NCBI GenBank assembly: GCA_002269645.1
Contig: NIVC01001330.1
Span: 248,001 to 312,000 of the forward strand
DNA: 64,000 bases
DNA from: Macrostomum lignano
Taxonomy: Eukaryota
Direction: 5' to 3'
In this document: positions 6,001-64,000 of the stretch, in pieces
Layout of the letters: each line of letters opens with the position of its first letter
How positions within the stretch are numbered: the first letter of the stretch is position 1
The notes under the pieces: generated by a model
The model's database searches: none
Told to the model about the DNA's origin: nothing
What the model saw: the letters and a program-made list of their open reading frames with translations, nothing else
Position numbers and translations under genes: made by a program

Positions 6001-9000
6001 GCACAATAAAATAGGGCCGCTGTAAACACCTGTGTGTGTGTGTGTGTGCGTATGACTGCGTACGTATCCGCGCGCTTGTGTGCCTGCCTAGGGGAGTTGA
6101 TGGAATGGGCAGCAATGCCTCTCGCCGGTTGTGTGACAATGTCGCTTGAAGTGCGCCACGCGTGCACACACAGCCCCCATATCTAAAAAAATCCTCTGAA
6201 TTTTTATGTGTATTTGAATATCAAAGCTTCTGGGTTGCAATATTGTTATTCATACGTACTCACTGACTCCACCGCAATTTCAGCTGTTCAGCATTGACAA
6301 CTGCATAGAGGATTGGCGAATCGCTATTACGACAAGAAGATTGACGCAGATGCTGATGGAGGTCATCGTCTGCGCAATCCACCCGGTGCCCAACGATCTG
6401 ACGTTTAACTGGGAAACCTACGTGCCGCACGACAGAAAGAAAGTATCAGTATTGGTGCCCATCGACTTATTCCTGTCGCTGCCCATGTTCCTGCGGTTGT
6501 ACCTCATCTTCCGGGTGATGCTGCTGCATTCCAAGCTGTTTACAGATGCCAGCTCCAGAAGTATCGGCGCCCTGAACCGGATCTCGTTCAACACGCGATT
6601 CGTACTGAAGACGCTGATGACAATGTTCCCCGGCACTGTGCTGCTGGTCTTCATTCTGTCGCTATGGATCACCGCCAGCTGGCTTCTGCGGGCTTGCGAG
6701 AGGTTCGAATTTTTTGAGATTTTTTGTTCTTAAGCTTGGTGTCATCCTCAAAGCGGCTTGACGATTCACAGGCCTGATGCTTCGTAATTTCTCTTTTTCA
6801 AGCTCGCTACATTGCCAGCTCAATACTTTACCAGCTCGATACTTTACCAGCTCAATAGTTTACCAGCTCGATAGTTTACCAGCTCGATACTTTACCAGCT
6901 TGATACTTTACCAGCTCGATACTTTACCAGCTCGATACTTTACCAGCTTGATACTTTACCAGCTCGATACATTACCAGCTCGATACTTTACCAGCTCGAT
7001 ACTTTACCAGCTCGATACTTTACCAGCTTGATACTTTACCAGCTCGATACTTTACCAGCTCGATACTTTACCAGCTCGATACTTTACCAGCTCGATACTT
7101 TACCAGCTCGATACTTTACCAGCTCGATACTTTACCAGCTCGATACTTTACCAGCTCGATACTTTACCAGCTCGATACTTTACCAGCTCGATACTTTACC
7201 AGCTCGATAATTTACCAGCTCGATCCTCGATGTTCGAAGTTTCACATTGTCTCCAGTAGTGATTTTTTATCACGTGACTTAAGTAAAAATGGTTATCGCT
7301 TTAAAATTTCGAGCTTATGATGCTTTGAGCTTCCTAGTGGGTCGAATAGCTTGTATCATTACAGGCTCGTTAATGACATACGTTGTCTATAGTAGCTGAC
7401 AGCATTTTTGCCACAGTCCTAACTAATTAAATAAAGGTAAATCCTCACGTATTTCCCTTTTCAGCTACCACGATGCTCTACACGGAAATATACTCAACTC
7501 AATGTGGCTGATCTCCATCACCTTCCTGAGCATTGGCTACGGAGACATTGTGCCCAACACCTACTGCGGTAGGGGCATTTCCATTGCCACTGGAGTAATG
7601 GTAAGTTTGCAGAGCCGAAACCCAATCGATCCTAACGTGAAGAAAAATCAAGGTTTGATCACATGTCGCTGCTTAGGCACAAACTAACGCAAGGAAATCT
7701 TCAAGAGCTTTGCTTTAAAAAATCTGACGCACCGTACAATGCGAACGCCCTGCCGCCTTTCCGCTGTTTGCCAGGTTTCAGGCTTATGGGTTAAAAATGT
7801 CTAGATTGAGTCCAGGAAATGAATAGGGGTTGGGCAAATCGATTGATTGACTAGCTACCTCGGTTAGACAAGTTTGACTCCGAGTACGGGACTGAAAATG
7901 CTTGCCAGATCTGAAAGCTCCACAAGAGTTTAAAAATGTTTGTGATTGTTTCTGCCGGTTGAGCAGAAAAGTTTAGCAAAGGAATCAGACGGAAGCTAAA
8001 CACGTTCTTTACTGGCACTAAAACCCGTCTCCTTGTTAGTCCTTTCCGAACAAAGTTCTCAACTGGCTGTCAGCCTATTTTCTCTAAAGTTCTTGCTATA
8101 GCAACGTCACTTGGCTCAGCTCCATCACCGCCGTTACACACACAGCTGCCCTGTTTCTCCACACCTTTGTTTGTCTGGCCTATCTCGGAGGCCCAGCTGT
8201 AGAGAGCTGCTCTCCGAATGCGTTGCAAGTTTTCGAGGGCCGGGCAGCGTATAGTCTTCTTTAGTACTTGTAGGTGGGGCAACTCTGGCCGGGGCCTCGC
8301 TTTTTCTGGCAAATATTCGGCGCGAGAGAGCAAATAATCAGCTAGGAAGAGGAGAGGATAAAGATGGAAAGAGGGGATGGATGGAGAGATCTTCTGGGAA
8401 GGAGGGCTCCGCCGATGGTGCTGGGGTGTATTGGCTCAATTCTACTGTGCCTTTAACCATGCCATTTTCTCCTTCTATTTCACAGCTAGCAGGGGATCAG
8501 AAACCAACAAAGTTGGCCACACCCAAAGCCTCTCCTTTTCACCCCCCCCCCACCCTGGAATTAAGCCCTCAGCTCTAGCGATATGATAAGCCACTCCAAA
8601 CTCGACCCTTATTCAAGCTCTAGCCGCGCGGAGTCAGGCAGGGGTCGGCCATATGCATCACTTGGGTCTGGCTGATCCACTTTTCTCGAAAAAGTTCTCA
8701 CCATCGCAGGCTGGCCCACACCAGCAAAAATCTGCCTCATTGATTCCGGTGGGAAGCCGCTCCCTATATCTCCACAAAGTAGGCCAAGCAGAAAACCTGA
8801 GACATGCGTGTCAGATATGCAGGTTATTTCGTCGCTCTGTGCCCCTACTCACTCAGTTTTCCGCCTTGAAGATAAATTTCTGCTCTAGATGTCTGTCTTA
8901 AAGGCTTTCAAAACCAGGATTCACGCAAGTGCATTTTAAAAAAATCTCCAAAGTCCATCTCAGCTCTGTAACTCCCGCCAGGGATTACGACTTTCAATGG

Positions 9001-35790: not shown

Positions 35791-38700
35791 ATGCTGGCTT
35801 CTCAAGGCATTGAGAAGGAGCAGAACTCGGCGGTCTCTGTCGACGAACTGCTGGTGGATTTCGAAAAGACTTTAATCGACACTCTGAAGGCGCCAGAAAA
35901 GAATGTGATCGGGAACCTGACCGGGATGGTGGACGGCTACCTCAGTCGTAAAGATAGCGCCGCTATCTGTCCTCGTATCTGCAAGATCATTGAGCGAAGA
36001 TTAAATGAAGTAAGTTTCTATATTTTTTTGTTTAGGCCACCAAGTGAATCAAAACTATCTTAGTTGTAGGCCTAATTCTTTTGCTCGAACTCAAACCTAT
36101 TATTGCAAAGGCGCAAATCGTTGTTACTCTGTTGTTCGTAAAGTTTTATTTCTGATTGGCATAACTGACGTTTCGGCTCTTTCTTCATGCTTCAATTCAG
36201 TGTTAAACCACAAACGATTTTAGTAGAGTTGTGTACTTTCTGACTACTTACTTTCAGTAGCAGTAGCGAGCATTTAGCACGTATTTTTGCCTAATTTTTT
36301 CTTAACCTAAGGCTAAACATCCCACTCTCTCACTAATTTCAGGTGCAAGTTAACAGGAAGCTGGCTCACCTCTACTTGATGGATTCCATTGTAAAGAACT
36401 TCAAGACCTCCCAATACCCGAAGCTGTTCGGCGCCAACCTGGTGCAGAACTTCGCCAACGTGTTTCGCAAAGGCGACGAAAAGATGCGCAAGAAATTGTT
36501 CGAGCTGCGAAAAACTTGGCCAGAGCATTTCAGCCAGTCGGTGTTGCATAGCTTGGACCTAGCGGTGCGGGAGATTGATCCCGCTTGGCCCATCCTGGCC
36601 CCTCAGCCGCCGGAGCAGCAGCAGCAGAATGGCAGCAATGTGGTTGGTGTTGCACGCAAGCGCTGCCACTCACCGGATTCTCCAGACTCCACCACCAGCC
36701 AGCAGCAGCAGCAGCAGCATGGGTTAGGCGAGTCCAGCAGTCGAAAGCGATTGTCGGTGGCCAACCCGCAGGCCGCAGCCAGCGGCGGCGGCGACTTTGT
36801 CATCGACACGGTCGGCGACCCGAAAGCGGCGGAGTCTGTTGCTACGGGAGTCCGACAGGGCAGGCACAGCCAGCCGCAGCAGCAGGCCGCTAATGATGTG
36901 GACATGCGCAGAGGCTGGAGCCAGTACAGGCGGAGGCACAGCGACCAGTTTGCTGCGGCAGCTTCTGATGTTGATATGCGCCAATTCCAGACAGTAAGTT
37001 GCACCCCAAAGCTGCGCGAGGGTGCCGTCCACCGGCTCAGGTCTGCACACACAAAGTATATCGGTACCTGCATTTTGTCTTTCTTATCCTCTAGTCAGAG
37101 CTTTAGCGTTTCCAATTCAAGTCTTGAAGTCCTCGCAAAAATTTGCATTCATTTATTTATATATTATAATTTTTACACCAAAGTCAACAAAATACAAGCA
37201 AAGCAAATGATGTGCATCTTATTGTTTGCAGATTACTGCTATTATTGTACTTTTTTTTATTTTTGACTCTAGTGAATGAAAAGAAAATACAAAAAAGCGT
37301 GTCTGATGTTCCTTACAGTTCCTACTTCCATTGTTAACCCGTAAACTGTTTGAATAACGCTTCACTTTTCATTATACTGTTCCGTGTTTCTGTTTCATAT
37401 TTGTCTGCTTGAAGAATTAAAAAAAAGCAAATTCGACTGACCAAACTGAATTAATAACTACATGTGCATGGAACAGAGGATGTGTCACTGCCAACAACGA
37501 TATTAAAAAATGCACAATAATAATAAAGCATGCAGTGACAGTGTCGGCACTCTAATTCTGTTCCACTGTTTGCCTTTGTTTTTACTTCTAAACTGTTCAG
37601 AAGAGACATTTAAATACTGTAGATATATATCAGTGTCAAAGCTATTTAGCTAAAGGATTAATGTTTTAAAGTTCAAGACTGAACTAGATAAAATTTTGTT
37701 GCTTTTTTCATTCTAATCGATTATTGTATTATATTGAATCGTTGATAATCATTTTACCTGTCTACTTACTTTGTACTGTATGCAACTGTTACTCTGAGAC
37801 ACACTGTGCTCCTAAGAAGTTCACTAACTTGTCTGAATCTCTGTTTTTTTCTATCTGTCGTTTAATCGTTAAAATGTTATTGATTTCATGGCGTTCGAAA
37901 TTGGAATCGTTCTTAAGTTTAGGATCGAGATTCGAATCTTTTACGACAATTAGTAACTTTATTATCACCGATGGGTCTCGTTCTTAGACTCCACAAAGTT
38001 AAGTCTCAATTCAGGGATTCGTCCTCAGTCTAGGTTTTATTTAGGAAACTAAAATTTAGGATTAATTTAGAACTTACCAAAAAGGCTTTGACTCATTAGA
38101 AAGATTAGGGTTTAGGAATCGCCTTTAGTGTTTCGCTCATTTAGGAAGCTAAAATTAGGTTATAAGAATCGTCTTTAGTGTTCCACTCCATAGGAAACTA
38201 AAATTAGGTTATAAGAATCGTCTTTAGTGTTCCACTCCATAGGAAACTAAAATTAGGATTTAAGAATCGCGCTTAGTGTTCCACTCCATAGGAAACTAAA
38301 ATTAGGATTTAGGAGAAATCGCCCTTAGTGTTTCATTCCATAGGAAACTAAAATTAGGATTTAGGAGAAATCGCCCTTAGTGTTTCATTCCATAGGAAAC
38401 TAAAATTAGGATTTAGGAGAAATCGCCCTTAGTGTTTCATTCATTAAGTAATTAAAATTAAAAAATTAGGAAATCAAAGACTAGGGGCGATTCCTTAGCT
38501 AGGATTTAGGAATCACCCTTAGTCTTTGACTCCTTTATAGGAAACTAAAACTAGGATTTAGGAATCTTCCTTATTTAGGAACCTCCCCTAATTATTAGGA
38601 AACTAAAATTAGGCTTTAGGAATCGCCCTCAGTCTTGAATTACTAGGAAAATAAAATTAGAAATCACTCCCTCAGTTTCGGGATGATTTGGAAACTAAAC

Positions 38701-41700
38701 ATTTAATAAAAATCTGCCCTACTTTGTTTCGAGCTGATGAAGTTTGTATCTAATTCTCTGTTTTTTTAAACTGAATGGCCATCCACTTGAGTCTTTGTCA
38801 CAAAACCGCACACTTCACACCGAAGGCCCCCAGCCCTCTCCCTTGTATCGCCGCTCACGATTTCAATCTCCCGTCAACTCTCGCGCAGGAGGCCGCCAGC
38901 GGACCGGCCGAAAGTCGAGAGATGATGGAGCAACAGGCTGCGCAAATCCGGCGGATGCTGGCGGCTGGCGGACTCAAACCCGAGATGCGTCAGCAGTTAA
39001 CTGGCTGTTTGAGAACACTCGAGGCCGAGTTCGCTGCCGCAGCCCCTGTTGCTCAACAGAAACCCTGCCAGCAATCGACTTCTTCTTCTAGCAGCAGCAG
39101 TAGTCAGATTCCTCAGCATGTTGACAGTCTGCTTGACGCCCTGCTGGGGCAACAGGCTTCTGACAGTTGCCAGCCGCTGCCGCCACCGCAATCGATGCCT
39201 CCGCCAGGCCGTCAGCACCAGCAGAGTCGCGTCCGGCCTGAGCCAGTCTTCAAAGACCTGTTTCGCTGGCGGGTCAATGTGCCCGACATGCCGGAGTTTC
39301 CTCAGATTGGCTGCGATCCGAGGCTGCTCGCTCCGCTAAGAGACCGCTTTGAGGCAACTAAAAATATCCAGATTGATGGAGAGATTCGCCAGGTGAGGGA
39401 GGAGCTAAACCTGGGCTGATGCAAATTTAAACCATATGGCTAGCGCCTTTTAAAATTTTATTTTCGAGAATAACAACACAGAGAATCTCCCCTTTGACTA
39501 CCACAAGAGTTGGATCTTTAACTACCACAAGAATCGCCTCTTTGATTACCTTAAGAATCGCTCTTAGACTACCTTAAGAATCGCCCCTAGACTACCACAA
39601 AAATCGCCCCTAGACTACCACAAGAATCGCCCTAGACTACCACAAGAATCGCCCCTAGACTACCACAAGAATCGCCCCTAGACTACCACAAGAATCGCTC
39701 CTAGACTACCTAAAGAATCGCCTTCAAACGACAAGAATCCAATCCAAGTGTCTAGCAATCGCCCATGGACTCATACTTCACAGCCCTATCCCTTGAGCTA
39801 TCCCTACACCCCATCTCACCCCTCCAGGTGGTGCTGGACCGCATCCAGCCTCTGCTCATACTGGACGAGCAGCCGCGAGCCCTTCGCTTCAAAATGCCGC
39901 CAGGCGGCAGGATTCTGCTCAGAGTGGACTCCCATCAGCCTGTTGAGCTGCGCATCAACTCCTGCACCAAGGTGCTGTTTAACCTTCGGCCGCACATGGT
40001 CTGTCTTGGCGGCCCATTTCACGAGCTCATTGTGCACGGCCGGCCGTTCAATGTGCAGTTCAACGACCCCAACCCGAAGACCATCACTCTCGGACACGGC
40101 GCCAGCGGCCAGTTCTCTGTCCGCCTACAGGCCCTGCTGTCCAATGGCCGGCCGGTCACTCCATCCTTGGACATCTGTCCGACTATTCCCAGATCTGTGC
40201 TGCGCTGGGCTACCGACGGCGCATTCGGCAGTCCGCAGCATTTGCACCTGCCGCCTTTGAATCCTGAGGTGCAGATGCAGCAGAAGGCCCAGCAGCAGCA
40301 GCAGCAACAACAGCAGGTGCCTCAGGGACCGCCGCAGCCACCGCAGCAGCCTCCGGAAGCACCTCAGCAGCCGCAGCAGAAGCCAGCAACAGTAGTGGAA
40401 CTATTCGAAAATCTGGTCAAATTTGGCATCATCAAGAAGACAGACGCTGCGAATGCTCCGGAGCCCGATCTGACCAGCTTTGAAGGCATCGACAGGCCGC
40501 TGCCAATGATCACTAAGCGTCTGTACGAGGGCTACCAGTGCCCGCAGTGCGGTCTGCGCTTCAACAGCGAAGAGGCCCCGGAGTGCCGCGATCATCTCGA
40601 CTGGCACTATCAGCGTCGCGCCGCCCTGTTCGGCGTCACCATTCGGTCTAGAAATTGGTTTCCGCACTGGACTGCCCTCGTCAAAGGCGAGGACCCCGTT
40701 GAGGCCGCCGCCGCTGCTGCCGCCGCCGCTGCAGCCGCTGCCGCCGCTGCGAAAGCCGCCGCCGCCGCGGCCAATAAAAACCGATCGGCCAAGTCTGGCG
40801 GCAGGGGGGCCGCTGCCGGTGGCTCGCTCGACTTTATGGCGAGAAAGGTGGGTTGGGAACGAGGATTAGAGAGATCGACGACTGCATTGGATTCGAGGAT
40901 TAAGGATTAGGCTTAAAGGATTAAGGATTAGGATTCAAAGATTAGGAATCAAGGATTAAGGATTGGTATTCGAGGATTAAGAATTAGGATTCGAGGATTA
41001 AGAATTAGGATTCGAGGATTAAGGATTGGGATTCGAGGATTAAGGATTGGGATTCGAGGATTAAGGATTAGGATTCGAGGATTACGGATTAGAATTCGAG
41101 GATTAAGGATTAGGATTCGAGGATTAAGGATTAGGATTCGAGGATTAAGAATTAGGATTCGAGGATTAAGAATTAGGATTCGAGGATTAATGATTGTCAT
41201 TGATTGGGATTCGAGGATTAAGGATTGGGATTCGAGGATTAAGGATTAGGATTCGAGGATTACGGATTAGAATTCGAGGATTAGGAATCGAGGATTAAGG
41301 ATTAGGATTCGAGGATTAAAGATTGGGATTTGAAGATTAAGGATTAGGATTCGAGGATTAGGAATCCAGGATTAAGTTTAGGATTTAGGAATCGAGGATC
41401 AAGGATTAAGATTCGAGGATTAGGAATCGAGGATTAAGGATAAAGATTCGAGGATTAGGAATCGAGGATTAAGGATAAAGATTCGAGGATTAGGAATCGA
41501 GGATTAAGGATTAAGATTCGAGGATTAGGAATCGAGGATCAAGGATTAAGATTCGAGGATTAGGAATCGAGGATTAAGGATAAAGATTCGAGGATTAGGA
41601 ATCGAGGATTAAGGATAAAGATTCGAGGATTAGGAATCGAGGATTAAGGATAAAGATTCGAGGATTAGGAATCGAGAATTAAGGATTGGGATTCGAGAAT

Positions 41701-42930
41701 TAATGTATTCTGGTTTGGAATCTGTCTAAAGATGCTTCAGTTATAAATGACACAGAGACTTCTTCTGTCTGGTTTTAATGGTTTATAACGGAGATTGGAT
41801 CATCTTTTAGATCTAGAGTATATAAACCAATATTGAAGAGTATTTGAAATCTGTCAGTTCCTGAACTCATTTGAGATTAGTAACAATCTGCATCAAACTA
41901 AAATGGATCTGTAATGTATCATACTCAACACCTGCAGGATCAGGCACAGCAGCACCACCACCAGCAGCACCAGCAAGTCAGTCGAGTCTCCGCCTATCCG
42001 GAGCCCGAGCGTAACGTATGCGGCGTCTGCTTCGAGACATTCGACAACCGTTGGGACGACGAGGCCGAAGACTGGATGCTGCTGGACTGCGTGCGGCTAC
42101 CCGACGGCGGGATTTATCATCCCGTGTGCGCCGAGGATGCTGGCAAGGTGCGCGTAGATGAGAATGATGACGATAATAAAGCGTCCGAGCTGCTCACCAA
42201 CCCGGCGGCCGCTCTGATGAACATCCTGCAGCACAGTCGGCCGCAGTCCTCTGCCAGCGTTGAAGCCATGGACGCTGCGGACGCTGAGAAGCCCACTGAG
42301 CTTAAGCTGGAACCTGGTGATGTCGCACCAGCTGCCTCTGAGGCTGCCGCCGAGTTCAAAGTCGAACCCCAGGATCCCGAATCTGAGGCTGATCACGGAC
42401 CGGCTGATGACGATGCTCATACACCGGTTCATGACGATGCTCATACACCGGCTGATGACGGTGGTCATAAACCGGCTGGTGACGATGCTCATACACCGGT
42501 TCATGACGATGCTCATACACCGGCTAATGACGATGCTCATACACCGGCTGATGACGATGGTCATGCACCAACTCATGACAATGCTCATACACCGGCTGAT
42601 GACGATGGTCATGCACCAACTAGTGAGGATGCTCATAAACCAACTGGTGACGATGCTCATACACCGGCTGATGACGGTAGTCATGAACCAACTGGTGACG
42701 ATGCTCATACACCGGCTGATGACGATAGTCATAAACCAACTAGTGACGATGCTCATACACCGGCTGATGACGATGGTCATACACCGGCTAATGACGATGG
42801 TCATAAATCAACTTATGTCAATGCTCATACACCGGATAATGACGATGGTCATGCACCAACTAGTGAAGATGCTCATAAACTGGCTGATGACGATGCTCAT
42901 GGACCCGGTGATCCAGACGCAAGCAATTAA
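35791..42930 (+). CDS. PCF11: Pre-mRNA cleavage complex II protein PCF11 (CID domain, two Zn fingers), 5 exons
   Basis: Exons 35791-36009, 36343-36993, 38889-39392, 39828-40847, 41938-42930 (all phase 0, GT-AG). CID motif KLAHLYLMDSIVKN...LFELRKTW...IDPAWP; ZnF1 LYEGYQCPQCGLRF...HLDWHY...SRNWF; ZnF2 CGVCFETF...WDDEAEDW...IYHPVC. Confidence 0.92.
38040..38700. repeat. Degenerate ~50-bp minisatellite, PCF11 intron 2
   Basis: Core aggaaactaaaattaggatt...aatcg..cttagtgt. Confidence 0.8.
39485..39730. repeat. 23-bp minisatellite (gcccctagactaccacaagaatc), PCF11 intron 3
   Basis: Direct tandem repeats. Confidence 0.85.
40870..41700. repeat. ggatta-based 21-bp/35-bp minisatellite, PCF11 intron 4
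   Basis: Unit gaggattaaggattaggattc. Confidence 0.9.
42403..42906 (+). repeat. Coding 24-bp repeat: 21 Asp/His-rich octapeptides (consensus xDDDAHTP) in the PCF11 last exon
   Basis: In frame within ORF 41914-42930, downstream of ZnF2. Confidence 0.85.
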
Positions 42931-53659: not shown

Positions 53660-55850
<2,191 letters not shown>

Positions 55851-56118
55851 AGTAGTATAGAAAAAGACGCTTCTAGACCCAGAGCACTTTTTTAATGACC
55901 GTTTTAAGGGTCTAGAGGGGGGACACGGGGGGTAAATAAAAAAACACATCTAAACACCATTAATACATCTAATCACCCATAATCACCCCTAACAATAAAA
56001 ATCACTTCCCAACACTTCCAAACACTCCCCAACACCCCCCTCGCGTCCCCCCTCTTAAGACCTTAAAAACGGCCATTAAAATAAGGTCTGATCTGTAAGC
56101 GTCTTTTTCTATACTACT
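55851..56118. repeat. Terminal imperfect palindrome (~85-bp arms) at the Polinton left end
   Basis: agtagtatagaaaaagacgct (55851-55871) is an exact reverse complement of 56098-56118; similarity extends to ~55935 / ~56035. Confidence 0.9.
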
Positions 56119-56175
56119 ACTCTATAACCCCTTGCCCGCGCCGCAGGCGCGAAGGGTCTTTTTCTGTTACTAAAA

Positions 56176-56490
56176 ATGACCCGAGTTTACACCTTTTCTG
56201 TTAGTGATACTTTTGAGACTGTTGCTAAAAATGCAGAGATAATAAAACAACATATTTTGAATGGAATAATTGATGAAGTTTATTTAAAATATGACGACAA
56301 GCATGACCTAAAGCTTTATCCATTAGAGCTAGATGAGATGTATGATTTAGAACAAGAGGGTGAGTTAATATTTCAACTTGGAGATTATTTAAATTCGGAT
56401 GATTGGGAGGTTAGATCAACAGATTCCGAATCAACAAATAGTTCATATGAAACCAGTGATTCAGAGAATGAAAGTGAAATTTTTATGTGA
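56176..56490 (+). CDS. Polinton hypothetical acidic protein, 104 aa
   Basis: Open ORF with AAAAATG start; very Asp/Glu-rich C-terminus. Confidence 0.6.
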   Translation: MTRVYTFSVSDTFETVAKNAEIIKQHILNGIIDEVYLKYDDKHDLKLYPLELDEMYDLEQEGELIFQLGDYLNSDDWEVRSTDSESTNSSYETSDSENESEIFM

Positions 56491-56506
56491 AAAAAATATT
56501 TAAAAA

Positions 56507-56731
56507 ATGAACTATTATTCTATAACAGAAACGACGTTTATTATGAAAAATATATATAAAAAAATGAAGGTAAATTATTCCTACATCGGAAATGTTCCAA
56601 TTAATGAACTTAATGAAAATTTAAGTTTGATAACAGTTGAACAAATGTCAATAATAATATTAGTAACAATAATAGTAATAATATTGTTTTTGTTTGTAAT
56701 AAAAAATTTACTACCATGTTGTCTTAAGTAA
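56507..56731 (+). CDS. Polinton small single-pass membrane protein, 74 aa
   Basis: AAAAAATG start; hydrophobic SIIILVTIIVIILFLFVI followed by K...PCCLK. Confidence 0.55.
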   Translation: MNYYSITETTFIMKNIYKKMKVNYSYIGNVPINELNENLSLITVEQMSIIILVTIIVIILFLFVIKNLLPCCLK

Positions 56732-56741
56732 CTGTTTGAAC

Positions 56742-58349
56742 TTAGTTCGCAGACATTATCTGGTTCTCATAAAAAGAACCCAATATTTCTTCACCATCCT
56801 TATCAGCAATTATATAGGTTGTAGGATTTGTATTTAAAACTTTACTGATGGTAAATTTCTCACTTATTTTCCAATATCCTTTTCTTCCCTTTTCAAACTT
56901 ATCTTTCCATTTATAGATATAAACAGAATCACCAACCTTAAAACCTTTAGTTTTCTTTTTTTCAAAATCTCCAAAAGTAACCCTAACATTTTCAGGATTG
57001 TTATAAGCTTGTTGAGGAGTCATCTTTATCGCCGAATGATATGAATTGTTATAATCTTTCACTACCTCTGGTAATATTTTTACCCATTTTTGGTTACCAT
57101 TAAGACTAAACTGAAACCATAATTTCTTACCTAAAGTTCTATTAAATCTTTCTATTAATGCGTTTTTACTCTCTCCATAAATAGAATAAATTTTATTAAT
57201 ATACTCCCCATTCGCGTCCTTTTTCCTTTCTTGTCCTTTTTCAAAATGATACAATTTATACATGTGAGGATTGTAAAATTCTTTTCCTTCGTCAACACAC
57301 AACCTTTCACTTTTTTCTCCAAGACTTCTAAAAGCAGCAGCAACCTCCTCTCCCTTTTTGGATTTTAAAGGAACAGCCCACGCGTATCGAGTAAAACCAT
57401 CTAATATGGTTAAGATATATTTATATCCTCTTTCGTTCGGCATCGACATTAAATCAGCATACCAAATTTCATTCTTTTTGAAGTTCATGATTTTTCTATA
57501 AAATTTAGGTTTTCGATATTCTTTATGAAGAATCTTTGCCTCATCAGAACTTAACCCGCCGCCACTTAACAACAAACACTCAACACAATTATTTCCATGT
57601 TGATTATAATTAATTCCCAAACCAAATTTAACTTTAGACTGCAAGATCTTTTTAACCATCCACCTAGTTAATTTTTGACCTACCGATAATCCCTGCAAGT
57701 TATCTAATCCTTGAATCATTTTTTGATCGGCTTCATGTTTTAATCTTAATGCTTCCTCGGGTGTGTTCTTATCAGCATCTCTGTATGCTAAGTCATGATA
57801 GTATGCTAACCAATCAATTCCATTTATGGGAATTGAATCGGCTTTTGGGGTGTCATCAGGATTTAATCTCAAATCTAAGCGAGTGCCGGGTAGTTTACCC
57901 TCAATCTTTCGAAAGAGGCTGGAGCACACCTTAAGCGGCGATAATTACCGCCCATCTCCGTCTGCTCTCTGAACCTTCTCCTTATATTTAAAATACTTAG
58001 GAGCTTGGCTGCGCATTGCCACCGTGTCTTCAAGCTTTTTACCATCGAACCATAGGTTCGCGGACGAAGTCCGATTGGGAAGAGGAGTTACCTCTGTTCC
58101 TTCAAAAGATTTCTCAATTGAAGTGGTACTTGAAGCTGTATGACGGGTTTCACGCAATTTGGAGATGTCGCCACAAATAGTGACTAGCAAGGACATTGCC
58201 TTCCTCACTCAGGCCACGGGTTAACCTGTGAAGTTCATTGATGGTAGGTGTAGCTCACCCGTATACCTCCCAGTAGTAAATATTGGTGGTAAGCTTGTTA
58301 ATCCTTTTTGAACATCTAAAAATCCTCCTTCAAATACTATTTGGTTCAT
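56742..58349 (-). CDS. PLA2X (parvovirus-type phospholipase A2)-retroviral-like integrase fusion; exons 58349-58224 and 57890-56742 joined by a group I intron; 424 aa spliced
   Basis: Exon 1 gives MNQIVFEGGFLDV...GELHLPSMNFTG and exon 2 gives PGTRLDLRL...PINGIDWLAYYHDLAY...EAD (PLA2 Ca loop, HD and D). These are followed by the rve DDE core WYADL / CVDEGKEF / IERFNRT and YNNSYHSAIKMTP. Confidence 0.88.
57891..58223 (-). ncRNA. Group I self-splicing intron (IC1-like, 333 nt, no internal ORF, apparent omega-A)
   Basis: P1 exon CAGGU / GCCUG with U.G at the 5' splice site; P3 CAUCUCC(58167-61)/GGAGAUG(57959-53); P4 UGCGUG/UGCGCA; P5a with A-rich bulge; P5b GAAA tetraloop; P6a CUCCU/AGGAG; P7 G-A(bulge)-GAGCA(57969-63)/UGCUCC(57926-21); P8; J8/7 UUAAGGUG; P9 GAAA; P9.0 AG/CU. 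Removal restores NFTG|PGT in frame. Confidence 0.9.
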
Positions 58350-58833
58350 TTTTAATGTTTAAAAAACATGTTTCTATCAATTTAATAATTTCTAAATATT
58401 GGTCACCATATAAAAAATTTAAAGCAAATTCCCCAGTTAACAAGGTAACTCCATTATCAAATACTTTTTGTACGGGGTTTTTAGTAGTATTATTAATGCA
58501 AATATAATATAAATCAAATTCGGGATTAACATATTTAAATTCTAATAACTTTTGAATATTTCTAAATCGACTTGATGAATTATCTGTGTTATCAGAAGAT
58601 TTTAACTCTAACGCAACTTTTCTTTCTGTATGAATTAAATCAATTTTATTTACTTTTTCAAAACCAAAATGTTTAATAGCTAATAATTCATAAAGAGATC
58701 CAAGTCTCATTTGTATTGTTTTAATACGGTTTGCAATTATTAATTCATCTTGAAATATTTTATTTAGTATTCTGTCAGAACCAACTTTATCATAAATAGG
58801 CTTACAAAGGTGGTCTTTTATTGTTTCATCCAT
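58330..58833 (-). CDS. PD-(D/E)xK restriction-endonuclease-like protein, 167 aa
   Basis: ATAAAATG start at 58833; motif Q-x-RLG-x-LYE...IDLIHTERKVALELKS-x2-NT (D...ExK). Its stop overlaps the PLA2X ATG by 20 nt. Family assignment is by motif only. Confidence 0.6.
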   Translation of the reverse strand: MDETIKDHLCKPIYDKVGSDRILNKIFQDELIIANRIKTIQMRLGSLYELLAIKHFGFEKVNKIDLIHTERKVALELKSSDNTDNSSSRFRNIQKLLEFKYVNPEFDLYYICINNTTKNPVQKVFDNGVTLLTGEFALNFLYGDQYLEIIKLIETCFLNIKNEPNSI

Positions 58834-58861
58834 TTTATAAAAAAATAAATTTAACAATTAA

Positions 58862-59533
58862 TTAAACTCCAGTATGTCCAGCAGCTTTCGCAGCAGCTAA
58901 AACAAGTTTTCGCGGTGTTTTAAATCCATCACCAACAGCTGGTTTGTTATTTATAGAATTAACAATCCATTTATACAAGCTGGTATTTTTAACAGCTCCT
59001 CCTAACTCATCATAAAAAATTCTAGCACTTATTAATTCATCCCTAGTATATAAATCGGGGTTAAATTTTACCCTAGGGTTCGTAATAATATTAAATGCTC
59101 CGCCCAATTCTCTATATAGTTCATTTCGATCTTTAACAACGTTACCAATTCGATAATTACCACCACCTAAATCTGTCACAGCAATACTAGTTGGTGCAGG
59201 TCTCGGATATTGTTCAACTCCACCCCTAATCTCTTCACGTCTAATTTCTGCAACTCTAAATATTGCTTGATCAGTCTCATAAGCAGGCGGCTCATCCAAA
59301 ATTTCATCCTCTTTTGGCTCCGTATTTTTAGCAATTTTTTCCAGAAGATCTTTATCTGTTTTTTCTAGTTCACTAATTTTCCCAGTAATAGGATTAACAA
59401 AAGGAGCAGCAAATCTTTCACCCGCTAATTGTATTCCTAACTTTCTTTTTTGTAAATTCCTAACAAAATCAGAATATCTTTGCTTCTCTTTATAAATCGC
59501 TAACTCTCCATCAACGTCCATAAATTGACTCAT
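58862..59533 (-). CDS. Polinton hypothetical (possible virion core) protein, 223 aa
   Basis: Intact ORF with AAAAAATG start; C-terminal LAAAKAAGHTGV recalls the A-x2-AGNTG motif of Polinton core proteins. Confidence 0.6.
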   Translation of the reverse strand: MSQFMDVDGELAIYKEKQRYSDFVRNLQKRKLGIQLAGERFAAPFVNPITGKISELEKTDKDLLEKIAKNTEPKEDEILDEPPAYETDQAIFRVAEIRREEIRGGVEQYPRPAPTSIAVTDLGGGNYRIGNVVKDRNELYRELGGAFNIITNPRVKFNPDLYTRDELISARIFYDELGGAVKNTSLYKWIVNSINNKPAVGDGFKTPRKLVLAAAKAAGHTGV

Positions 59534-59567
59534 TTTTTAACATAAAAAACTTTTTTAACTTAAAAAA

Positions 59568-61090
59568 ATGGCTGAAACAAAAACTATGTGGAGTGATAAA
59601 TTTCATTTCAAAAAGCACCGACAGTATATTAATGAGGTCAGAGCAAGAGATTTAAATTATACCCTACCAACAAGTGATAATTCAAATAACTTTACTACTG
59701 GAACGGTAACTTTTGACATCGGCGCAACCAACACTATATTGGATATGAAAAATGCGTTTTTCCGCGTTAGATGGTTGTATACTAGAAATGATGGAACTGC
59801 TCTTGCAGCCGGAGATATCGCAGATCGATCCGGAATAATAATAGAAAATGATTGGTTTTATAAATGTTTTTCCCAAGCAAAACTGTTAATGGTGCTGAGG
59901 TTGAGACATCATCAAACCCCGCAGAGATTAATGGAGTTTTGAAACATTTAAATTATACTTATTTATCAAAACAAGTTGGTGATAATGTTGGGTGGATGCC
60001 GGATAAAGGTAACGGTCAAGCAGTAGTTTTCCCTAATGTACAAAACGCAGCCGGTGCAGATACTGCAGCGCTAATTGTTTACCTTAATACAAACATAGTT
60101 CCAGTTGTAACCACTATGACTAATACAAAAGATATTAATACTGGTTTTATAGATCGTCAGAATAAATTCCCAGTCGCGGTTTTAACCACAGCAACAGCAT
60201 ATGAGCAGGACTTTTCAATCTTTCCACTATTTGGGTTTTCTCACCAAATCGGGTATGGAAAGGATTAAAATTTGGGATACAGTTGCAAATATCTGGTGGA
60301 TATCAGCCTAGGATACTTTATGGAACCTCAATTTCAACCGATATAGCAGTTCGTATAGATTCAATTCAATTAGTCGTACCAACTATTGAGGTAACAGCCC
60401 CACTTTTAAAACACATCGATAATCAGTTAACGCATGATCAGGAAATATTTTATTTGAATCGTCGACATTTTATGCGAACCATTAATAATAACCAGGATTC
60501 ATTCCAGTGGCAAATACTGACATCAAAACGTCGGGTGAGATATATTTTTGTTTGGTTTAAGATAACAAATAGAAGGAGTAAAAGAGCAAATGGGATTTAT
60601 ATTGGCTTCAATCCGGTGCGCATAGCAGAACAAGCAGCCACCGCAACAGACAATGCGGCTGCAGCTATTAACGAGTTTAATGTTCAGAATATCCGCCTGC
60701 AGGTTGATGATCAATATTATCCGGTTAAAGACCCCCTAAATTTAAATATAGCAAATAATAATGTTAATGATTTTATAAAATATTATCAAGATTATGCTAA
60801 AAATGAAGCGTATGCCGTCCCTCAGTACACACACAGAGTTTCTAAACATTCATCCAGTGGTTGTTTATGATCTAACGGCACAGAAAGAAAACGTAGCCAA
60901 TATTGGACTTAATTATATGTTAGAGATTAATAAAACCGGTAATCAGGCACTTGACGCCACGTATTGTTTCTAGAGGAATATATGTCAATTGCTAAAGCTG
61001 ATGCACGATTGTTCGGGACGCACTTTAGCTCGCACTGCAAAGCATCAACACCTGTAAAAATGGTGCAGGTCTCGACCGTCGCGCTATTTA
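59568..61090 (+). pseudogene. Major capsid protein (double jelly-roll, Polinton-type), frameshifted
   Basis: Three consecutive ORF pieces (59568-59942, 59864-60268, 60283-60870+) with beta-rich motifs VTFDI...LDMKNAFFRV, RVRYIFVWF and FNVQNIRLQVDDQYYP-x2-PLNLN; 3' end approximate. Confidence 0.7.
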
Positions 61091-61105
61091 AATTATTTCT
61101 TTAAA

Positions 61106-61866
61106 ATGGTAAAGGCAAAACACGATAAGATATTCCAAATGATCCTTTTCTTTGTTTAGTAATTGGTGGTCGGGTAAAGGAAAAACACACTTGTTTATCG
61201 ATTTATTAACAACGATGGAATGCTAGACTATAATAATTTAATAATATTATACTAACAAACCTAGAATAAAATATTATGAATTTCTTAAACATGGATTAAA
61301 AAACAAATTAAAAAAAGATGTCTTGTTTAGAATGTTAAGAGCATATGAGCAATATGAGGATGATGACGAACCGCGATTTAATCTAGCAGACATTGAGGAT
61401 TTATGTAAAACAATGGCACAACAGCCAGAAAACATCACCGATCGCCCCGAAGGGTCGCGGACTTCGTCCGATCGCCCAACTGTATAGAGTATCAACCCGA
61501 TTAGCCTATGATCAAATTCCAAACATGATAAAACACTAATTATTTTTGATGATTGTATTAATGACGGTGATCAAGAATTGCAAAAGGAAATTTTGTTAGT
61601 GTGTAGAGGAGATGGAATTGGAGCTTTTTATCTTACTCAATCCTTTAGAGAATTAGAATCGATTATAAAAAAGAATGCTAGCTTGTTGTGTAATGTTTGA
61701 TTTAGATAACTATGATCTACAAAATATTCACGCTAGATTTAATCCCGGGATTGGATGCAAAACCATTTAAAAGTATGTGTAAAAAAATTTGGGATGATAG
61801 CCAATACAAACATATTTATATCAATCCGAGGTTAGAAAGGAAAAATAGAATTTAAAAAATTTGATA
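61106..61866 (+). pseudogene. A32/FtsK-like genome-packaging ATPase, frameshifted
   Basis: Walker A region LVIGGxGKGKTHL (broken by an indel), Walker B LIIFDD and YLTQS motif. Confidence 0.8.
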
Positions 61867-61940
61867 AAAGACGATGAGGAAGAAGAATGATCGTCCCATA
61901 GGTCGCGTACCTCTCGGTACGTTAATTTCCCACTATAAAA

Positions 61941-62722
61941 ATGACTACAAATTTAAATACTATAAAACACATTGGTAGATCGAACTAATTCAAAATTTAG
62001 TACAACATTACAGTTATAATGACAACCAGCGAGCAACGGATTCAATTGCGCGATCCATTACAATTGATCAAAGCCTAAGTTATCAAATAGGTTTAATACT
62101 ATTTTCGGTTTTCAACATGCCTCAATTAATTAATGCAACAAATAATCAATTTAGATATTTAAGATTCCGGAGCCAATTGGAACAACATTTAGCGCTTAAC
62201 CCAGGAGCGTATAGCTATACTGATTTGAATGCTTATATAGAAGGAGAATTAACAACTAATGGTGATTGGTAGCAGGAGCAATTGTTATAGGTGTTGATTT
62301 ACCGTCTGGCAGATTCACACTATCACTAGGATCCGGATATCAGGTTGATTTCACAATTGCAAATTCACTCAGAACCATACTTGGATTTAATTCCCGAATA
62401 GTTACCACATCAAGCACCGGTGATACAGTTGGAAATATAGAGGGTGGAGTAAATACAATTAATATAACAACCGACATATCAAACGGTGGTTATATAACAG
62501 ACGATAACGGAGTTTTGGTTCAACGTGGAATTATTTATTCAATCCCATTTCTTGCTGTTCCAATTGGAGAGAAAATGATTGTATCACCTCAAACCCAATA
62601 TATTACCCATTAAATCAATATAATGTTCAATCAATTTATATTAGGATTGTAGATGAAAGCGATAGATTAATAAGTTTTGGTGGGCATCAATAACATAATT
62701 TTTACGTATAAAACAGGTTTAA
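61941..62722 (+). pseudogene. Minor capsid protein (penton), frameshifted
   Basis: Pieces with NATNNQFRY, PGAYSY, LRTILGF, NTINITTDI, IIYSIP, ending LRIKQV*; typical Polinton penton pattern. Confidence 0.7.
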
Positions 62723-62915
62723 TCGTATGTAAAAATGGGTAATAATAATATAATTTAACTAAAAAAACAATCAGAAAAAGTTAAAAAAGCTGAAGATAAT
62801 TACGAACTAGAACTAGCAAAATTAAGGCAGTTACAAGCTGATAAAATAAGAAAGGAATTGTTAAAACCCACACCTACGAAACTAACTAAAACCAAGAGTT
62901 TTTCAGGAACATAAA

Positions 62916-63351
62916 ATGACCATGACGTGGGATGATTTTAAACAAAGATATGGAACGACACAACAAGCAATATCGAATTAACAAATTGGGCGAGGCAGTT
63001 AAAAATAAAACCATTCAGATGTGTTATGCGAGATGAGATAAAGACTTACCACAATATGGATCTTTCATTGTTAATATTGAAACAACAAAAGAAAATGGTG
63101 TTCATTGGTCAGCAGTTTATTCAAAACCAAAACTTGTTTATTTTTGATTCATACGCGCTTCCTCCGTTACAGGAAATAAAAGACAAATTTAATCATACTA
63201 AAAATCGTTTATGTGGAGATCATCACGAACAATTTCAAACTTTGATAAAAGTTATTGCGGGCAAGCGGCGTTGTATTTTTTATATCGACTTTCGAATGAA
63301 GCTCGTGTAAACCCCGAAGTATTTAAGACTATTTTAGACTCTATAAAATAG
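62916..63351 (+). pseudogene. Adenain-like cysteine protease, frameshifted
   Basis: Catalytic motifs across frames: GVHW (His), FDSYALPP (Asp) and Q...YCGQAALYFL (Cys). Confidence 0.8.
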
Positions 63352-63361
63352 ACAGTAAAAA

Positions 63362-64000
63362 ATGTTATTTTCTGGAACACCCTCATGGAACGGAACAACA
63401 AGTAGTCTGGTGGTGGCACATCTGGGGAATAAGTGTTACATTTGGAGATAATCGATATATTAATGAAGATGAAGGTTATAAAAAAAGTGAAGTTGATACT
63501 AAACTAAATTTAAAAAGAAACGTTGCAGATTCCTATACTAAAACTCAAATAGATGATTCACTAAATCTGAAACGGAACGTAGCCGATTCCTATACCAAAA
63601 CCGAAGTTGATAATTCATTAAATTTAAAACGCAATACAGCCGATTCTTATACCAAAACGAGAGTTGATAATTCATTAAATTTAAAACGCAATAACGATTC
63701 TCTTATACCAAAACCGAAGTTGATAATTCATTAAATTTGAAACGGAACGTAGCCGATTCTTTATACCAAAAACCGAAGTTGATAATGGATTAAATTTAAA
63801 AAGAGATGTAACTGATTCTTATTTCGAACTGATTCTGATTCACGTTATGTTCAAACCCCGCAAACGCGGAAACCTAGATATGAGCAACAACCGAATTATA
63901 AATGTTTCAATTACAACTAGTGATTCAGTGGTTGATAGAACTATGTCGATAATCAAAGTTGCCACTCGTTGGTAATATTAATATGAATAATTTTAAATTA
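63362..64000 (+). pseudogene. Fibre/spike-like protein with 57-bp (19-aa) coiled-coil repeats, frameshifted, partial
   Basis: ~6 repeats of YTKTEVDNSLNLKRNVADS (63480-63830) followed by LDMSNNRIINV. Confidence 0.55.

Follow-up and report, generated by a model that had tools for sequence, protein, structure and literature searches.

A terminal adenosine segregating with guanosine in a group I intron family of Polinton-like elements of Macrostomum lignano

Introduction

A terminal adenosine in place of the terminal guanosine (omega-G) is in itself a known, if rare, exception among group I introns. In bacteria, Raghavan et al. (2007) reportedly described a 23S rRNA intron of Coxiella burnetii without omega-G, said to be Cbu.L1917 and to splice more slowly; it resembles the intron treated here as a natural group I intron without the terminal G, differs in residing in bacterial rRNA, and to our knowledge has no population of A- and G-ending sister copies. 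The hexacoral mitochondrial intron ND5-717 lacks the terminal G and is described as having its exons joined exactly with more than 70% left unspliced (PMC6545197). The initial annotation of our locus had named the scleractinian ND5-717 as a precedent for a terminal A, and such a precedent exists, although its range is wider and also takes in mushroom corals (PMC6545197) and a sea anemone (PMC8146996), for which it has been suggested that the A prevents 3'-site hydrolysis and the formation of circles. ND5-717 shares with our intron a natural terminal A and a place in a protein-coding gene, but is mitochondrial, vertically inherited and reported as A without G alleles. The intron described below is nuclear, IC1-like and ORF-less, and lies in a mobile element in which A and G alleles segregate.

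Introns of the Rfam family RF00028 are also described from Polinton-type elements integrated in nuclear genomes, namely the protist Polinton-like viruses of Rhodomonas, Paulinella and Desmodesmus, where they measure 309-376 nt and occupy a gene other than ours; the text consulted does not mention their terminal base, and the supplementary tables may list the ends (PMC12220804). A review of 2013 placed all nuclear group I introns known at the time in rDNA (PMC3679873). In our literature search, with subscription papers outside its scope, Polinton-type group I introns were reported in protist Polinton-like viruses only, none in animal Polintons (including the text consulted of PMC10748475 and PMC8502044), and no A/G polymorphism at the terminal base of a group I intron came to light.

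The host gene and its Polinton-like element

The window is the whole stretch of 64,000 nt of Macrostomum lignano DNA that was analysed, and all positions refer to it. The stretch from 55851 to 64000 belongs to a Polinton-like element that continues past the window and has the traits of Polintons and alpha-adintoviruses: an rve integrase together with the PLA2X gene (PLA2X is described in PMC8502044), an AGTAGT terminus, and varied host flanks. The region from 54000 to 55850 is a host minisatellite with a 17-nt unit alternating with CT runs, and host exons at 6218-6730 and 36337-42927 match an SK potassium channel and PCF11-like CID and zinc-finger domains. The intron interrupts the PLA2X-integrase gene (Table 1), whose second exon matches PF00665 (E 1.6e-7, 31.9 bits, just below the cut-off) and PF08398 (E 0.008, below the cut-off) in Pfam. 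It sits in a Gly-Pro codon pair that imposes the word GGNCC on alleles without the intron. In 30 of 112 copies the intron gene is preceded by an Eco47II-like ORF. Further into the element, broken ORF pieces at 59559-63310, which by their motifs we tentatively label capsid-, ATPase- and protease-like, have no Pfam match, and the exons of the PLA2X-integrase gene are open by contrast; the fragmented frames may reflect either real decay or long-read indels.

Table 1. Features of the intron-bearing gene and of the element around it (positions in the window).
Feature	Position	Strand	Remarks
End of Polinton-like element	55851..56121	.	starts AGTAGT; adjoins host minisatellite
Exon 2, PLA2X-integrase gene	56742..57890	-	382 codons; PLA2-like domain (PGTRL...AYYHD) in frame with rve integrase
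Group I intron, IC1-like	57891..58223	-	333 nt, without ORF; in-frame stop at its start
Last intron base (omega)	57891..57891	-	A; from sequence and intron-less alleles
P9.0 3' strand	57892..57893	-	CU before omega; pairs with A57920/G57919
P9 hairpin	57899..57918	-	GAAA loop; fold -8.4 kcal/mol including P9.0
P9.0 5' strand	57919..57920	-	AG right after P7; A57920/G57919 pair with U57892/C57893
J8/7 and P7 3' strand	57921..57930	-	UGCUCC; C311 equivalent is 57922
J6/7 and P7 5' strand	57963..57970	-	AGAGAGCA; G264 equivalent is 57967
P4-P5-P5abc region	58015..58152	-	A-rich bulge, GAAA L5b, 30-nt double-hairpin insert (fold)
P1 helix	58210..58228	-	exon U58224 pairs with G58214; fold -7.2 kcal/mol
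Exon 1, PLA2X-integrase gene	58224..58349	-	42 codons from Met; ends ...HLPSMNFTG
Upstream ORF, weak Eco47II-type restriction endonuclease match	58330..58857	-	PF09553, E 5e-4, below cut-off

Intron structure and position of the splice sites

The Rfam covariance model RF00028 matches the minus strand from 58233 to 57900 with 61.1 bits (E 4.8e-13; gathering score 50). The U.G pair expected at the 5' splice site is present in P1 (U58224.G58214), the P1 loop from G58215 to C58220 offers the guide for P10, and the P3-P8 core is complete; the lower pairs of P7 read GAGCA/UGCUC, unlike the common GACUA/UAGUC type. A P5abc extension, an A-rich bulge and a GNRA L5b are marks of subgroup IC1, and the intron has all of them by its fold; a P9.1/P9.2 extension and the common P7 are absent, with only a short P9, and we term the intron IC1-like without assigning it to IC1. 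The terminal guanosine, a near-universal trait of the group, is absent at 57891 and present in 29 of 114 sister copies; its absence makes the intron less canonical, not less a group I intron, because the A-ending ND5-717 is retained as group I in PMC8146996.

Read on the minus strand (with the caret for the cut), the 5' junction is ...UUCACAGGU^UAACCCGUGGCCUG and the 3' junction ...GAGGGUAAACUA^CCCGGC..., exon 2 running from 57890. A search of the genome with a pattern for the unbroken loop gave 22 intron-less alleles, 19 from a sister lineage and three close kin; the latter read ...[FY]AG^PGTRL, and over the part compared two of them do not differ. From the reading of these three close alleles the 5' site falls after 58224 and the 3' site before 57890, and the cut cannot slide because intron and exons have no common end letters. 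We compared six candidate 3' ends, A57891 and its five nearest G's: only A57891 combines both P9.0 pairs, four of five P10 pairs and the length given by the intron-less alleles, a frameshift results from four of the five G's, and the fifth, G57900, falls within the P9 stem and would lengthen the protein by three residues. The initial annotation, which had put the 3' site before CCC GGC with A57891 as the last intron base, is thus borne out by the intron-less alleles, which fix the junction; the two P9.0 pairs by which it had independently placed omega at this A are both present, as is the P7 guanosine-binding pair (G57967-C57922) that it had called intact. This is a group I intron with a terminal A at an unambiguous 3' junction.

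Introns of the family fall into length classes of about 303 and about 333 nt, and about 29 of 112 copies owe a longer intron to a 30-nt double-hairpin insert (about 58045-58075 in the window). One hairpin of the insert recurs at 61458, in the ATPase-like region, which suggests that both represent a small mobile palindrome. The final 17 codons of the intron in the window are open and in frame with exon 2.

Census of the terminal base

Ten loci were dropped before the count (four duplicates, one chance match and five viral loci), and among the 114 remaining copies of the intron family in this one genome omega is A in 85, G in 29, and C or U in none. Counted by distinct haplotypes, A is found in 70 of 94. 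Flanks were checked for 14 A copies, and the element end was found in 13, which gave 11 different insertion flanks; some of the copy counts are therefore assembly duplicates (two pairs among these 13). Identical A copies occupy different insertion sites, and at least 12 sites, the window included, carry A. Contigs of two public runs from two other studies (X9 and X10) span the omega site and carry A as well, since all their listed differences fall elsewhere. Pairs of A and G copies with otherwise identical intron bodies occur for two of the 76 bodies. The terminal A is thus no artefact but an inherited allele, carried by most members of this group I intron family in Polinton-like elements. Sister copies had been proposed as a check in the initial annotation, a G in them to count against omega-A; both bases are found there, and because the site is polymorphic the G copies do not refute the A.

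Some copies have ends of other interest. Eleven G copies (L023, L026, L035, L037, L043, L044, L046-L048, L055 and L092) end in CAG, like a spliceosomal acceptor, and one (L073) ends in ATG, in frame with exon 2. Two truncated copies (L066 and L079) retain only the 3' half of the intron, one joined to another gene of the element and one to unrelated DNA. Spliceosomal removal was rejected on inspection of the sequences: A copies have no terminal AG, and use of the closest GT donor in the 11 CAG copies would shift the frame. The base at omega is not linked to the upstream endonuclease-like gene (A in 25 of 30 copies with it and in 57 of 80 without; p=0.23), nor does avoidance of a DNA word overlapping omega account for it, the tested words around either allele occurring elsewhere in the element.

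Ancestral base and related introns

A sister intron family occupies the same insertion site in a sister Polinton lineage, and its 25 copies (29 pattern matches less four that are not introns) all end in CUG. It has the insertion site, P9 and the P9.0 CU in common with the window family, and differs by a common-type P7, an internal endonuclease-like ORF, a weak P10 and the invariable G. Its introns (L229-L238) measure 836-894 nt.

Outside relatives with the P7 variant GAGAGCA/UGCUCC are mostly introns of giant-virus RNA polymerase genes. Among 15 metagenome loci with this P7, some of them near-duplicates and most with the upstream exon outside the locus, ten could be read from the downstream frame, nine ending in G and one in A; two further viral loci (L054 and L176) end in G. 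The exception (L245) is a giant-virus RNA polymerase intron with an apparent terminal A, read from the downstream frame only, whose same-site relatives end in G. The giant-virus introns at the NADFDGD site of RNA polymerase (L052, L054 and L240-L253) are like ours in the P7 variant and a similar core, and unlike it in their host gene and in usually carrying an endonuclease ORF. Since the same-site sister family ends in G throughout, and most giant-virus relatives with the same P7 do so too, G is probably the ancestral terminal base.

A protein search of viral contigs for the PLA2X-integrase gene gave one weak match. Five loci retrieved by 16-mer matches have no Rfam match at E 0.01, and three did match a family profile. 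In one viral contig (L145, 416-1653, minus strand) five group I introns follow one another with only 12-25 nt from one Rfam match to the next, and in another (L178, 507-1644, minus strand) three type II hammerhead ribozymes are spaced at about 500 nt.

P7, P9.0, P9 and P10 in A and G copies

The guanosine pocket is the same whichever base ends the intron: among the 85 A and 29 G copies, the motif of J6/7 and the P7 5' strand is intact in 84 and 29, and that of J8/7 and the P7 3' strand in 83 and 28, respectively. A P7 remodelled for adenosine is thereby ruled out, and the variant P7 is no adaptation to A, because the outside relatives that have it mostly end in G.

P9.0 behaves differently. 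Its CU is kept in all 85 A copies vs 16 of the 29 G copies and, on distinct local haplotypes, in 28 of 28 with A vs 9 of 16 with G (p=3e-4), a contrast that amounts to about three mutation events, which G, as the older allele, had longer to gather. The breaks are of three kinds, all of them with G, and both exons are open in 9 of the 13 broken copies. In P9, all variants common to at least two A copies keep the pairing. Base +3 of exon 2 pairs with the P10 guide in 76 of 85 A vs 2 of 29 G copies; this link of A with C at +3 may be plain linkage over 3 nt. In-register P10 helices have 3-5 Watson-Crick pairs in the window family vs 1-3 in the sister family (10 of its 25 copies). Within the window family, A and G do not differ significantly in P10 when distinct haplotypes are counted (p=0.15), and the commonest A haplotype has a weaker best-register P10 duplex (-3.3 kcal/mol) than the commonest G haplotype (-7.5 kcal/mol).

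Selection on the exons, recombination and RNA

Both exons are open in 47 of 81 A vs 15 of 28 G copies (p=0.83; five copies left out as truncated or short). In intact A copies exon 1 has a pN/pS of 0.17, the PLA2 part one of 0.06 and the integrase part one of 0.16, and by this measure the exons of A copies are under purifying selection. Codon alleles found with A only, in at least two copies and in comparison with 12 G copies, comprise 16 synonymous and 2 nonsynonymous changes, and synonymous changes prevail even in codons 1-30 (5 vs 1). An unspliced transcript meets a stop codon immediately past exon 1. The suggestion in the initial annotation of a functional omega-A ribozyme gains indirect support from the selection on the exons and from the conservation of P9 and P9.0.

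Linkage in the intron family decays over a distance of 10-30 nt, and sooner near omega; the exons of A copies may therefore have come under the observed selection while they stood beside G or intron-less alleles. A tree of the copies requires 15 changes at omega, at least 10 of them forced, which owing to the heavy recombination are unreadable as 15 mutations; the same recombination leaves room for the rescue of A copies by G copies. None of the 24 public runs listed is recorded as RNA. Contigs of four of the 20 runs that contain the sequence, guessed to be RNA and possibly DNA, have no joint across the intron and are evidence neither way.

How the A copies may splice

On balance we favour, with reasonable though far from full confidence, a reading in which A copies are spliced correctly: P9.0 and P10 would position the site, and the second step would probably be slower. 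The 5' site would be set by P1, and in the first step free guanosine would be bound by the unchanged P7 pocket. In the second step this pocket would bind the A poorly, and the 3' site would be placed mainly by the two P9.0 pairs together with P10, formed by the P1 loop and exon 2; ligation would then be accurate yet slower with a terminal A. According to PMC6155759, P9.0 and P10 define the 3' site. With a P10 longer than in the all-G sister family, the ancestral G could have relaxed to A, and the two alleles would now segregate over freely recombining backgrounds. It speaks against this reading that the P7 pocket of A copies has no change towards adenosine. An unlikely extension is that A is not just tolerated but favoured, having become the majority since P9.0 and P10 took over the choice of the 3' site, either by lowering the output of PLA2X-integrase or by blocking 3'-site hydrolysis and circles; if so, the last intron base would act as a heritable A/G switch that tunes an endogenous virus-like element and that host RNA editing might read.

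It is unlikely that A copies splice little or not at all, the intron still serving to break GGNCC in the DNA, with the protein supplied in trans by elements with G or without an intron and the exons refreshed by recombination. The intron-less junction is indeed GGNCC, a word that occurs neither in the 8,150 nt of the element inside the window nor in what was scanned of 112 of 112 copies; recombination is intense, and alongside the 29 G copies among 114 the same genome has 22 matches to intron-less alleles, three of them close kin. Nearly dead A copies are hard to reconcile, however, with their being no more broken than G copies, with the dominance of synonymous changes, codons 1-30 included (5 vs 1), and with the pairing of P9.0 and P9, which matters to RNA only, lies no more than 30 nt from the A and is kept with it. 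That A copies need the help of the host, through a protein cofactor or through A-to-I editing that turns the terminal A into a G-like base for P7, is improbable. The RNA would be made in an animal nucleus, with the A between two short helices, and a review heading describes the hexacoral ND5-717 as obligatory and host-factor-dependent (PMC3679873). The intron core is nevertheless complete and conserved, and as to editing, genomic G alleles would mimic it in mixed reads. A two-pair helix is, besides, a poor substrate for RNA editing.

Very improbable, too, is the use of a nearby G as the 3' site in A copies, most plausibly of G57900, which preserves the frame, adds Gly-Lys-Leu and lets the intron end in G; G57886, for its part, would have three P10 pairs. 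G57900, however, has neither P9.0 nor a Watson-Crick P10 pair and is part of the conserved P9 stem, and its use would add three residues to a GPG loop that is unbroken in the intron-less alleles, while the other four G's shift the frame and the G sisters end at exactly the homologous base. The alternative held out in the initial annotation, a base-call error or a mutation private to the window copy, could draw on the frequent single-base indels in the assembly's sister copies and on some duplicated loci; it is almost certainly wrong, refuted by the census, in which A recurs in 85 of 114 copies and 70 of 94 haplotypes, at 12 or more insertion sites and in contigs of two other studies.

Implications

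Textbooks treat the terminal G as a rule of group I splicing; the published exceptions that we found are single fixed cases. What is new here is a majority A allele that segregates with G in a nuclear animal element, together with an apparent compensation signal at P9.0 and with the all-G sister family as a control. One genome holds more than 100 copies with A and G segregating, a sister family with G throughout, and a P9.0 that is lost only where G is present; because these coexist, the shares of omega-G, P9.0 and P10 in the choice of the 3' site are testable with natural alleles. The pattern of selection would also add to the evidence for a working group I ribozyme in a protein-coding transcript of an animal nucleus.
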